Source of the DNA: a virus
Lineage: Duplodnaviria; Caudoviricetes
IMG/VR virus record: IMGVR_UViG_3300042294_003246
Length of the DNA stretch: 64,000 nucleotides
Reading direction: 5' to 3' (one strand)
Part shown: positions 44,454 through 64,000 of the stretch, in pieces
Layout of the letters: each line of letters begins with the position of its first letter
Position numbering within the stretch: position 1 is the first letter of the stretch
Notes under the pieces: generated by a model
Told to the model about the DNA's origin: nothing
Seen by the model: only the letters and a program-made list of their open reading frames with translations
Databases searched by the model: none
Translations under genes and position numbers: made by a program

Positions 44454-46904
44454 ATGAAACACATTTTATTTTTATTTTTATTCCCCCTTTTTATTTATTC
44501 TCAGTATTGTCCTTATATTGGACCTGACTTAACTTTACCTTGTGGTGTAAACTCAACAACGTTAACTGCTGATCCATCACAATGTGGTCAAGGAGCCCTT
44601 CCTCAAGGAACCTCTAATTACGGAGTTACTAACATACCTTATGTTGTACAAGTTAATAACGGAACATTGGTACAACTTAGTGATGATTCACAATCTAATA
44701 CGTTTAATATTGGGTTTACTTTTTGTTTTTACGGTTCTAATTATACACAGTTTCGTATAGGATCAAATGGATGGATTTCGTTGGGTGCTGGAGTTCAACC
44801 AGCCACTTTTGCCACTCAAGCAATACCTTCAGCAAATGCCGCAGTTCCCAAAAATTGTATTATGGGTCCGTGGCAAGATTGGAATCCAAGTTTAGGGGGT
44901 CAAATTAGATATCAAGTACAAGGAACTGCCCCTTGTCGTAAATTAGTAGTCAGTTGGATAGGTGTTCCTATGTTTTCTTGTACAAACCTTCAGGGAACTT
45001 TTCATATTATTCTTTACGAATCAACTAACGTGATTGAAAATCATATTGCAAATAAACCCGCATGTAATCAATGGGCAGGAGGAACCGCAGTTCAGGGTAT
45101 TCACAACCTTTTAGGAAATGCGGCAGTTCCTGTTGCAGGTAGAAACTCAACACAATGGACCACTGTTAACAATGCTTATCGTTGGACGCCAAGTGGAGGT
45201 GTAATTCAGCCAACATGGACTTGGTATCAGGTTGGAAACCCTAACCCAATTGGTACGGGATTGAGTATTACTGTTACTCCTCCAATCGGAGGAGCTTATT
45301 ATACCTGCCAACCAGTGTTCCCTTCTTGTAATGCTGGTTGGTCCTCTTGTAACGCAGGAGTTGGACAAGGTCCTGATACAATTTTAGTAACACCAACACC
45401 AAATTTACCACCTCCCACAATTACTCCAACAGATCCTTTGTGTAATAATGGTTGTAATGGATCAATAGTTGTAACTCCTGTTGGCGGATTAGGTCCTTAT
45501 ATTATCAATTGGTCTAATGGGTCAAACACTCTAACATTAAATAATTTGTGTTCAGGGACATATAATTTCTCTTTGACCGATGCAAATGGGTGTGTATATA
45601 ACGGAACTTCAACTTTATTAAACCCACCACCATTACAATTACCAACAGTAACGTCAACTAACCCAACTTGTTTTGGTTATTGTGACGGATCATCAATTGT
45701 TAATCCTATAGATGGACTTGCACCATACACATATCTTTGGAATGATGGTCAAACCACTCAAACGGCAACTAATTTATGTTCGGGAAACTATTCTGTGACT
45801 GTTACAGACGCAAATAACTGTCCTGTAACTCAAACCACAACGTTAGTTGATCCTCCACTTGTAACAATTAACCCGATTACAGGATCAGACACAGTTTGTT
45901 TTAACTCTACAGGTAATTTATACAACGTCTCAAGTGTTTTTCCTAACCTAAACTACGTATGGACTAACACGATGGGAAATATCTCGTCAGGACAAGGGAC
46001 AAATCAAATAAATTTGGACGTAACTGGTGTGAATGGGGGTCTATATTCCAATACTTTATCAGTTATTGGTGTAAATCAAGTTGGATGTCAGTCACAACCT
46101 CAAACTTTTTCTATTGTTGTATTGAATATACTACCTGTAATTACACCTATCGGTCCGTTTTGTGAATATGACAACTGTATTAACTTAATTGCAACCCCAC
46201 CTAATGGAATTTTCAGTGGATTAAACGTTTGGGGTAATCAATATTGTCCTGACAATGGGTTTATTGGGTTAGATTTTGTAAATTATATGTATTCTCAGTC
46301 AGGATGTTGGTTTGATACGTCAATTAACGTTCAAGTTTATCCACGACCTAACATTTTACCTGTGACAAATGGTGTTGTTGATGAGAATTTAGAGTATCAT
46401 CAAATATGTGAGGGTGATACTGTATCAGATGTGTTTAGTTTATCATCAGTTAGTGGTGGATATAACGAATGGTATGTGTTTGGGGATACAATTACTAACA
46501 ATACGTTAAATATAACGTGGGATATGGACGGTATATTCACTTTTCAGGGAGTAAGATGGGACAATGGGTGTGTTTCTAACCCCCAATCCTTCACCATAAC
46601 CTTAGAATTGTGTCCAAATGAGATATTTTACATCCCAAATGCCTTTACACCCGATGGTGATGAAAGAAATAACATATTAAAACCAATAATCACCTCAGGA
46701 GTGGACATTTTTAACTACTCTTTTGTGGTTTTTAATAGGTGGGGACAGATTGTATGGGAATCTTTTAATACCAATGTGGGTTGGGATGGGACATATAACA
46801 ATATTCCTTGTCAAGATGGGGTTTATACGTGGAAATTAAAATTTAAAAGTCCCAAAACCGATGAAATCAAAGAATTTTACGGTAGTTTTACGCTTATTAA
46901 GTAA
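44454..46904 (+). CDS. T9SS type B-sorted adhesin-like protein (SprB repeats, PKD-like, gliding-motility CTD)
   Basis: Signal peptide; two SprB-like repeats (LCNNGCNG, TCFGYCDG...TVTDANNC); GQGTNQI; C-terminal YIPNAFTPDGDERNN...FNRWG...WDGTY...DGVYTW...GSFTLIK. Confidence 0.88.
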   Translation: MKHILFLFLFPLFIYSQYCPYIGPDLTLPCGVNSTTLTADPSQCGQGALPQGTSNYGVTNIPYVVQVNNGTLVQLSDDSQSNTFNIGFTFCFYGSNYTQFRIGSNGWISLGAGVQPATFATQAIPSANAAVPKNCIMGPWQDWNPSLGGQIRYQVQGTAPCRKLVVSWIGVPMFSCTNLQGTFHIILYESTNVIENHIANKPACNQWAGGTAVQGIHNLLGNAAVPVAGRNSTQWTTVNNAYRWTPSGGVIQPTWTWYQVGNPNPIGTGLSITVTPPIGGAYYTCQPVFPSCNAGWSSCNAGVGQGPDTILVTPTPNLPPPTITPTDPLCNNGCNGSIVVTPVGGLGPYIINWSNGSNTLTLNNLCSGTYNFSLTDANGCVYNGTSTLLNPPPLQLPTVTSTNPTCFGYCDGSSIVNPIDGLAPYTYLWNDGQTTQTATNLCSGNYSVTVTDANNCPVTQTTTLVDPPLVTINPITGSDTVCFNSTGNLYNVSSVFPNLNYVWTNTMGNISSGQGTNQINLDVTGVNGGLYSNTLSVIGVNQVGCQSQPQTFSIVVLNILPVITPIGPFCEYDNCINLIATPPNGIFSGLNVWGNQYCPDNGFIGLDFVNYMYSQSGCWFDTSINVQVYPRPNILPVTNGVVDENLEYHQICEGDTVSDVFSLSSVSGGYNEWYVFGDTITNNTLNITWDMDGIFTFQGVRWDNGCVSNPQSFTITLELCPNEIFYIPNAFTPDGDERNNILKPIITSGVDIFNYSFVVFNRWGQIVWESFNTNVGWDGTYNNIPCQDGVYTWKLKFKSPKTDEIKEFYGSFTLIK

Positions 46905-59515: not shown

Positions 59516-59620
59516 ATGAAAAATACACTCAAACATATGGTCAATTGTCTACCGAGCAATCAGTGGTCGTTTAGCTATATTACGCGAAATCAGTCGAGGG
59601 TATTTTCACTTATGAGTTAA
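59516..59620 (+). CDS. Putative attenuator leader peptide 1 (34 aa)
   Basis: MKNTLKHMVNCLPSNQWSFSYITRNQSRVFSLMS, between promoter and terminator; rich in GC-ending codons unusual for this genome. Confidence 0.6.
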   Translation: MKNTLKHMVNCLPSNQWSFSYITRNQSRVFSLMS

Positions 59621-59651
59621 AAACGTTTAACTAACATAATAAAAGGAATGT

Positions 59652-59688
59652 AAAACCCGAGACTTAAAAATCTCGGGTTTTTTGTTTT
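59652..59688 (+). terminator. Attenuator-type intrinsic terminator before tRNA operon 1
   Basis: AAAACCCGAGA-CTTAAAAA-TCTCGGGTTTTTTGTTTT. Confidence 0.8.
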
Positions 59689-60468: not shown

Positions 60469-60540
60469 GGACTGGTAGCTCAGAGGCAGAGCAAAACCCT
60501 GTTAAGGTTGAGGTCGAGATATCGTAATTCTCCCAGTCCG
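60469..60540 (+). tRNA. tRNA-Asn(GUU), ATCGTAA T-loop
   Basis: GGACTGG/CCAGTCC acceptor, loop CTGTTAA, G73. Confidence 0.82.
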
Positions 60541-60550
60541 CAAAAAACTA

Positions 60551-60627
60551 CGGCACATATACCCTCCGTCTGATACGCGGTTGAAAGGTTAATAGGTCCC
60601 ATGTAGGTTCGATTCCTACTGTGCCGA
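60551..60627 (+). tRNA. tRNA-Ile(GAU)-like, D-armless with extended variable region
   Basis: CGGCACA/TGTGCCG acceptor, perfect T arm, CCGT-CTGATAC-GCGG; only 8 nt where the D arm belongs. Confidence 0.6.
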
Positions 60628-60631
60628 CTAC

Positions 60632-60715
60632 GGAAGATAAACCTTGATGGAGATAGGGTCCGCCTGCTAAGCGAGATGTACCTTCGGGTATTTGGTTCGA
60701 TTCCAATGTCTTCCG
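60632..60715 (+). tRNA. tRNA-Ser(GCU)
   Basis: GGAAGAT/GTCTTCC acceptor, loop CTGCTAA, long variable arm, G73. Confidence 0.8.
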
Positions 60716-60740
60716 CAACTTATGACAAAAAATAATTCAT

Positions 60741-61173: not shown

Positions 61174-61247
61174 GGTGTATGTAGCTCAGTTGGCAGAGTG
61201 CTTGATTGTGGGTCAAGAGGTCATGGGTTCGACCCCCATCATACACA
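61174..61247 (+). tRNA. tRNA-His(GUG)
   Basis: G-1, GTGTATG/CATACAC acceptor, CTTGA-TTGTGGG-TCAAG; discriminator A. Confidence 0.88.
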
Positions 61248-61253
61248 CAAAAT

Positions 61254-63430: not shown

Positions 63431-63610
63431 CAAACAAACGGGGGTGAGAAAATGTGATGGTGGACTCACCCCCACACAAAAGGAAGAAAGTTCTTTGATT
63501 TAAGATATTGTGGTTGTAAGCAAGGGGAAACTCGTAAAGTTCATTAACCAGTTGGCTCAAGATGGTGAAACGAGAGTGTGAGTCAACTACTAAATCACAA
63601 ATAAAATATT

Positions 63611-63743
63611 GTCAGGTGGGCGTAATGAGGGATGGTACCCGAGTCCCCAAGACCAATAGTCCCCGACACTTGGGGGTTCTATGGAGTCGTAAGGTTGTCT
63701 ATCCCGTCTAGAACGGTATCCGGTTCGAGTCCGGCCCTGACTA
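63611..63743 (+). ncRNA. Expanded tRNA-like RNA 1 (~133 nt)
   Basis: GTCAGG/CCTGAC acceptor-like stem, CCGG-TTCGAGT-CCGG T arm, internal 11-bp helix. Confidence 0.55.
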
Positions 63744-63749
63744 ACAAAC

Positions 63750-63890
63750 AGGCAAATGGCGGAAGAAGAGTTAACCATACTCGTGGCAGACGTTAAGGTA
63801 TATTTCCCGTAAGAAGTTAACCGAGGCATAGCTGGGAATGTCTATTGAAAATAGATCTATGTCGTACAGGTTCGAGTCCTGTTTTGCCTA
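63750..63890 (+). ncRNA. Expanded tRNA-like RNA 2 (~141 nt), GAA anticodon-like loop
   Basis: AGGCAAA/TTTGCCT acceptor, ACAGG-TTCGAGT-CCTGT T arm, GTCTA-TTGAAAA-TAGAT arm, two insertions. Confidence 0.6.
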
Positions 63891-63897
63891 CAAATAT

Positions 63898-63980
63898 CGC
63901 GGGATAGTAAGTAGTTGGTAGCTGGCGAGGCTCATAACCTCGTGTCTTTGACCCCGGTGGTTCGAGCCCACCTCCCGCAA
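63898..63980 (+). tRNA. Initiator tRNA-fMet(CAU) with enlarged variable region
   Basis: C1-A72 mismatch (CGCGGGA/TCCCGCA), CGAGG-CTCATAA-CCTCG, ~13-nt variable region. Confidence 0.8.
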
Positions 63981-64000
63981 CACAATTTGGTTTGGTAGTC

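Follow-up and report, generated by a model that had tools for sequence, protein, structure and literature searches.

What is encoded at positions 60551–60627 of the virus record IMGVR_UViG_3300042294_003246 (Duplodnaviria; Caudoviricetes)? The stretch of this record that was analysed, 64,000 nt long and hereafter called the window, is AT-rich (about 30% G+C) and phage-like, and its last 6 kb form a plus-strand tRNA array in which ARAGORN called 17 genes. The program made no call between tRNA-Asn (60469–60541) and tRNA-His (61175–61248), and thus none at 60551–60627, where the plus strand carries a 77-base gene with the anticodon GAU. According to our analysis, which compares this gene with its relatives, the locus most probably encodes a working elongator tRNA-Ile(GAU) that would read AUU and AUC and belong to a phage-borne family with a permuted core; we put the probability of this reading at about three in four.

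The gene, its family and the D-like stem

The acceptor end of the gene is that of a canonical tRNA, with a perfect 7-bp acceptor stem (60551–60557 with 60620–60626) and a discriminator A at 60627, and so is the T arm (60603–60619), which has a 5-bp stem and a canonical T loop. A 4-bp stem (60566–60569 with 60577–60580) closes the loop CTGATAC, a 7-nt anticodon loop with U33, a purine at position 37 and the anticodon GAT at 60572–60574. The departure from the canonical plan lies between these parts: only 8 nt (60558–60565) separate the acceptor and anticodon stems, with no D hairpin between them, and 22 nt (60581–60602) separate the anticodon and T stems. The original prediction for this locus had listed the perfect acceptor and T arms, the canonical CTGATAC loop, the short 5′ connector and the 22-nt region, and the sequence is as it described. 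When Infernal aligned the gene to the Rfam tRNA model (RF00005), the D arm was deleted and an 18-nt insert was placed in the variable region; no Rfam family besides tRNA fitted.

Looser pattern scans, filtered by script on pairing in the acceptor, anticodon and T stems, yielded 121 distinct sequences in 170 instances, drawn from phage contigs and from cultured phages of Streptomyces, Microbacterium and Bacteroides. They form the alignment A4, in which the window element is the first row; positions 1–77 of the element correspond to 60551–60627 of the window. The element carries the signature of the family, namely U8 A9 U10, a triplet, CU, the anticodon hairpin, a GAAA linker, a complementary triplet and a UA..GG stretch. 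A covariance model, R1, was built from the first 16 sequences and gave the window element 104.2 bits (E-value 3.6e-27), far above chance. Members of the family scored 56–108 bits, and canonical tRNAs and everything else scored at most about 30 bits, with the exception of two divergent candidates in contigs L010 (39.1 bits) and L189 (32.7 bits).

The alignment supports the proposed structure. In A4, 98.3% of the cells fall in standard pairs, compared with 37–45% when the partners are slid by 1–3 columns, and the covariation score was reached by none of 500 shuffles. Compensatory changes were found in all seven acceptor pairs, in all four pairs of the anticodon stem, in four of the five T-stem pairs and in all three pairs of a further helix, which joins positions 11–13 (ACC, 60561–60563) to positions 37–39 (GGU, 60587–60589). 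In the 121 sequences this helix is paired without exception. At 11:39, 85 sequences have CG, 32 AU, 3 GC and 1 UA; at 12:38 there are 74 with CG, 35 with UA, 9 with GC, 2 with UG and 1 with AU; and 13:37 is either CG (112) or GC (9). RNAalifold recovered the helix unprompted, and its pairs are among those with the highest mutual information, by which the same helices were found again. Eleven combinations of the two triplets occurred among 122 candidates and were complementary in 121 of them; the remaining candidate was a canonical tRNA-Asn that had been wrongly collected and was excluded.

On the evidence of this covariation, a D-like stem is present, built from the 5′ connector and the strand 3′ of the anticodon arm and enclosing that arm. 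Because the helix is paired throughout the family and bears compensatory changes, the gene is not the D-armless one that the original prediction had described.

Two other pairings were considered for this region and rejected. The minimum free energy fold of the single sequence (z-score −0.66) pairs 13–15 with 36–38, whereas covariation gives 11–13 with 37–39. An initial 6-bp helix model, pairing 10–15 with 36–41 and including a C.U mismatch, was replaced by the register taken from covariation.

The family is distributed among phages of different hosts. An exact 38-mer of the element is present in six IMG/VR contigs in which the 77 nt are almost invariant and the flanks partly unrelated, so that the element is better conserved than its surroundings. 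Searches with blastn against GenBank phages placed the family in 77 records of Streptomyces phages of cluster BE, where the site bears no annotated feature in 40/40 records among the matches listed. It is also present, again unannotated, in the Microbacterium phage Zooman and in Kehishuvirus ‘tikkala’ (OQ198717, 95577–95653), a crAss-like phage of Bacteroides cellulosilyticus. The Streptomyces phage Mildred21 (NC_042008) has three copies, with the anticodons GAU (73703–73779), UCG (91367–91442) and ACG (94857–94933), and the GAU and ACG copies are unannotated. The UCG copy (L369:1501–1576; FDI35_gt031) is labelled tRNA-Phe(gaa) in GenBank, and its anticodon hairpin reads UCG (Arg). The GAA of this label stems from the linker. 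We considered this linker triplet as an anticodon and rejected it, as it is invariant and has no flanking stem, while changes in the hairpin triplet go together with changes at the identity positions. Phage tRNA repertoires are thus both under-counted and mislabelled.

Among contigs of cellular genomes there is at least one true member, on a tRNA-rich 18.9-kb contig of a metagenome-assembled genome, and the other matches listed are attributable to chance. For the phylum to which a Flavobacterium genome belongs, R1 yielded no member from a sample of 151 genomes, in which few candidates were scored, and a sample of 401 genomes contained no match to the signature pattern. A megablast search of the tRNA array against GenBank phages returned matches to tRNA-Asn only. 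We found no description of the rewired layout in full-text searches of the literature, in a 2020 review of non-canonical tRNAs (PMC7609411) or in the work of Mukai et al. (PMC5389517). The rewired Ile/Arg layout, carried by more than a hundred phages and overlooked by gene finders, is a new structural variant of tRNA.

Canonical positions, anticodons and identity

How the parts of the gene correspond to those of a canonical tRNA can be followed along the sequence. The 5′ acceptor strand (60551–60557) leads into U8 A9 U10 (60558–60560), which is invariant in 121/121 sequences and likewise in a scan that left these bases free. The ACC strand takes the place of canonical positions 22–25 and is connected to the anticodon stem by C14 U15 (60564–60565; CT in 118/121), a joint that may correspond to positions 26 and 27. 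U15 stands opposite U31 as a U.U, with A31 in a few members. In the anticodon arm (60566–60580) C32, U33 and A37 are invariant. The linker TTGAAA (60581–60586), in which GAAA is nearly invariant and the second base is free, runs from the anticodon stem to the second strand of the D-like stem and may make groove or triple contacts. This second strand, GGU(U) (60587–60590), takes the place of canonical positions 10–13, and its U40 is invariant. The T loop (TTCGATT) is canonical in sequence, and the 3′ acceptor strand with the discriminator (60620–60627) is followed by no encoded CCA, which is also lacking in the neighbouring canonical tRNAs with the exception of tRNA-Trp.

Beyond the second strand of the D-like stem, the family shows a fixed order: an invariant U, an invariant A, a purine, a spacer of 2–4 nt, a nearly invariant GG and 3–5 bases; an invariant A and a pyrimidine come last before the T stem. 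In A4 the length variation is located just 5′ of the GG, as in D loops. The stretch may therefore be read as A14, R15, 16–17, G18 G19 and 20 to A21, followed directly by Y48. In the window, the putative D-loop analogue is AATAGGTCCCA (60591–60601; A41 and A51 invariant), in which 60591 would be A14-like, 60592 R15-like, 60595–60596 G18G19-like, 60597 position-20-like and 60601 A21-like. U52 (60602) would then be the analogue of Y48 and form a Levitt-type pair with A 60592. At 42:52, 109 sequences have A:U, 5 have G:C and 7 have other combinations, a weak covariation in the direction expected of such a pair. U8 would make a U8:A14-type contact with A 60591. We assign the role of G18G19 to the second GG because the base after it differs between Arg and Ile members in the way that position 20 does. 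The original prediction had assigned this role to GGTTA, whose GG sits in the D-like stem.

Compared with the cloverleaf, two blocks appear to have been swapped in order: the 5′ strand of the D stem with the D loop, and the 3′ strand of the D stem with position 26 and the anticodon arm. The new joins would link U8/A9 to the top of the D stem and A21 to position 48. Since each of them connects ends that lie close together in the known L of tRNAs, an L shape is sterically plausible, and the rewired RNA can probably still adopt it.

Six anticodons occur in the family. UAU (Ile) was found in 65/121 sequences and GAU (Ile) in 30; the Arg anticodons are UCU (12 sequences), ACG (7) and UCG (1), and the remaining six sequences have CAU (Met or Ile2). 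The strongest non-helical coupling in A4 is that of the middle anticodon base with the base after the GG and with the discriminator. All 20 Arg members have A after the GG, where 100 of the 101 Ile/CAU members have U. At the discriminator, every one of the 101 Ile/CAU members has A, and 15 of the 20 Arg members have G. In Escherichia coli, A20 is a classical identity determinant for arginyl-tRNA synthetase (ArgRS). An uncharged molecule would have no reason to keep an A20-like base matched to its anticodon, and this coupling therefore suggests that the rewired tRNAs are charged.

The composition of the tRNA sets points in the same direction. Neither ARAGORN nor the Rfam tRNA model found another Ile tRNA in the window, in agreement with the original prediction that this is its only Ile(GAU) gene. 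Isoleucine is the second commonest residue of the open reading frames (ORFs) in the window (7.8%), with ATT and ATC together amounting to 53.5 per 1000 codons. A complete 257-kb IMG/VR genome (G406; CheckV 100%) shows the same array order as the window and has 22 Rfam tRNA matches, all within a single stretch of 15 kb; for isoleucine it has a canonical UAU gene, a rewired GAU gene and no other. In arrays with at least 15 tRNAs and a rewired GAU gene, a canonical Ile(GAU) is missing in 9/12, and where the rewired gene has UAU (L244 and L246), a canonical GAU gene is present. This distribution suggests that the rewired Ile(GAU) gene fills a gap in the tRNA set, although not strictly so in all carriers.

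Candidate explanations

The explanation that we favour is a tRNA that works with its rewired core. The ACC strand (11–13) would follow U8 A9 U10 and lead straight into the anticodon stem, and the GGU strand (37–39) with the D-loop-like stretch, placed after the anticodon arm, would continue into the Y48-like base and from there into the T stem. In such a fold we expect the D-like stem to be stacked on the anticodon stem and the GG to contact the T loop. After processing and the addition of a CCA end, the RNA would be charged by the isoleucyl-tRNA synthetase (IleRS) of the host and used on host ribosomes. In its general form, that of a rearranged and possibly functional tRNA whose variable region supplies the G18G19 contact, the original prediction is borne out in part, though neither in the choice of GGTTA as donor nor in the loss of the D arm: the gene is rearranged and conserved, with 121 distinct sequences keeping the layout under covariation, as far as its suggested check on homologues is concerned, and it is very probably functional, judging from these comparisons.

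Several observations weigh against this explanation. Standard tools place the gene at or below threshold: ARAGORN is silent, and the Rfam tRNA score is 28.9–29.0 bits for a gathering score of 29. The top pair of the anticodon stem is a U.U. The proposed tertiary contacts rest on invariant bases, with the exception of the weak covariation of 42:52. Finally, a canonical Ile(GAU) accompanies the rewired gene in Mildred21 and in the contigs L010, L020 and L048, where there is thus no gap in the tRNA set that the rewired gene would have to fill.

A more far-reaching version of the functional reading seems to us rather unlikely, though worth stating. It holds that the rewired Ile and Arg tRNAs are fully functional, that cloverleaf connectivity is dispensable in bacterial translation, and that the core has been selected to evade host immunity directed at tRNAs, or a control that reads the D arm, while remaining a substrate for IleRS or ArgRS, EF-Tu and the ribosome.

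Of the alternatives to a working tRNA, the one that survives best, improbable as we consider it, is a tRNA mimic that does not decode and serves as a decoy or sponge for anticodon nucleases, a synthetase or a modification enzyme. The coexistence with a canonical Ile(GAU) in Mildred21, L010, L020 and L048 would be in line with it, and an unusual core could change recognition by nucleases. A conflict over tRNAs is suggested by other genes of Mildred21, namely those for an RNA ligase, a polynucleotide kinase, a CCA-adding enzyme, a Ro-like protein and a transfer-messenger RNA. However, a decoy for anticodon nucleases needs no identity elements, such as the A20-like base and the discriminator, that match its anticodon; the rewired gene is the sole tRNA with a GAU anticodon in G406 and in most of the large arrays; and the geometry of the acceptor and T arms, together with the canonical loop features, is fully retained.

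Far less probable is a truly D-armless tRNA, comparable to mitochondrial tRNA-Ser(AGY), with GGUUA in a long variable loop providing the G18G19 contact. The missing hairpin between the acceptor and anticodon stems and the resemblance of GGUUA to the D-loop motif of Ile tRNAs speak for this model, which the covariation contradicts: the GGU of this motif pairs with ACC, and 121/122 candidates are complementary there. Moreover, the invariant second GG has a spacer of variable length on its 5′ side and an identity-linked base on its 3′ side, and the conservation of the GG motif and of a canonical T loop shows no loss of D-loop/T-loop elements.

We give slightly less credence still to a precursor whose segments would be brought into the canonical order by cutting and re-ligation, for instance through a phage RNA ligase. 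Some carrier phages do encode an RNA ligase and a polynucleotide kinase, but no splice-like motifs were seen, two cuts and two joins would be required within a folded core, and the family is present in many unrelated phages. Such a repair would also be unneeded if, as the mapping suggests, the rewired order already joins spatial neighbours. The absence of an ARAGORN call and the threshold-level Rfam score would suit a decayed pseudogene or a chance tRNA-like stretch, the least probable explanation of all, but the unique decayed copy against which the original prediction had cautioned is refuted by 121 distinct sequences that covary, show compensatory changes in each of the helices and keep the functional loops invariant, and by a 77-nt element conserved above its flanks.

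If the favoured explanation is true, a widespread natural family that has every part of a tRNA, but with other joins between them, and that seems nonetheless to work with the usual synthetases and ribosomes of bacteria, would show which features of tRNA are truly required, and its core would offer a new scaffold for engineered or orthogonal tRNAs. The cultured carrier phages, from three host genera, allow direct tests of the rewired tRNA.

Surroundings of the gene and comparison with known systems

The array contains other unusual RNAs. Directly downstream of the rewired gene, at 60631–60716, lies a tRNA-Ser(GCU)-like sequence that was missed by ARAGORN. Its acceptor stem has 8 bp, its anticodon stem has 6 bp with a bulge, and its variable arm is long; among the Rfam families, tRNA-Sec matches it best, at 31 bits (cut-off 47). 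It is kept beside the rewired Ile gene in L001, L003, L004, L005, L013 and L024, and in L024 ARAGORN called it as Ser(gct). It probably belongs to the phage tRNA-Ser genes of (8/4) type described by Mukai et al. (PMC5389517).

Three further sequences of this kind lie near the end of the window. The first, at 63606–63744 (about 139 nt), has acceptor-like pairing at its ends and a T-arm-like GGTTCGAGTCC motif as its last part; it is partly conserved in L001 and may be a tRNA-like RNA with a large insertion. The second, at 63787–63890, is a conserved tRNA-like RNA of about 100 nt with a canonical T arm and a hairpin of loop TTGAAAA, in which compensatory changes relative to L001 are seen; it has no ordinary D hairpin, received no call from ARAGORN or Rfam and scored 22.9 bits with R1. 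The third, an 84-nt tRNA-Met(cat) called by ARAGORN at 63898–63981 (Rfam tRNA, 23.4 bits), may be another unusual tRNA or an Ile2-type gene reading AUA. Upstream of the first tRNA of the block, a weak match to the Rfam family Thr_leader (59608–59687; 33 bits, cut-off 55) falls on a site that is terminator-like. Elsewhere in the window, an 816-aa ORF (44454–46904) contains SprB repeats, a PKD-like domain and a CHU_C type IX secretion sorting domain, which hints at a phage host in Bacteroidota.

To our knowledge, the segment order of the cloverleaf is treated as universal outside organelles. With canonical tRNA-Ile(GAU) (RF00005) the rewired gene shares the 7-bp acceptor stem, the discriminator A, the 5-bp T stem, the canonical T loop, U33, GAU and A37 of the anticodon loop, U8, the A14-, G18G19- and A21-like bases and a position within a phage tRNA array. 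It differs from it in the order of the core and in a D stem that encloses the anticodon arm instead of forming a hairpin of its own, and that consists of three Watson–Crick pairs and a U.U.

The permuted tRNA genes of the red alga Cyanidioschyzon merolae also have segments out of the textbook order. In these genes the 3′ half precedes the 5′ half, and a circular intermediate restores the cloverleaf. In the rewired gene, by contrast, the 5′ and 3′ acceptor strands flank 60551–60627 in the normal order, and the mature RNA itself would be permuted in its core.

The D-armless mammalian mitochondrial tRNA-Ser(AGY) and the nematode mitochondrial tRNAs lack the D stem and the contacts between D loop and T loop, and depend on specialised mitochondrial factors (PMC7609411). 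They resemble the rewired family in having no hairpin between the acceptor and anticodon stems and in being missed by standard gene finders, whereas the rewired family, in its bacterial setting, has a D-like stem that covaries and retains both the GG motif and a canonical T loop. The allo-tRNAs and the (8/4) tRNA-Ser and tRNA-His of bacteria and phages have altered stem lengths (8/4 and 9/3) and keep the order of the cloverleaf (PMC5389517). The rewired tRNAs share with them the occurrence of non-canonical architectures in phage tRNA clusters, but they retain the 7/5 lengths and alter the connectivity.
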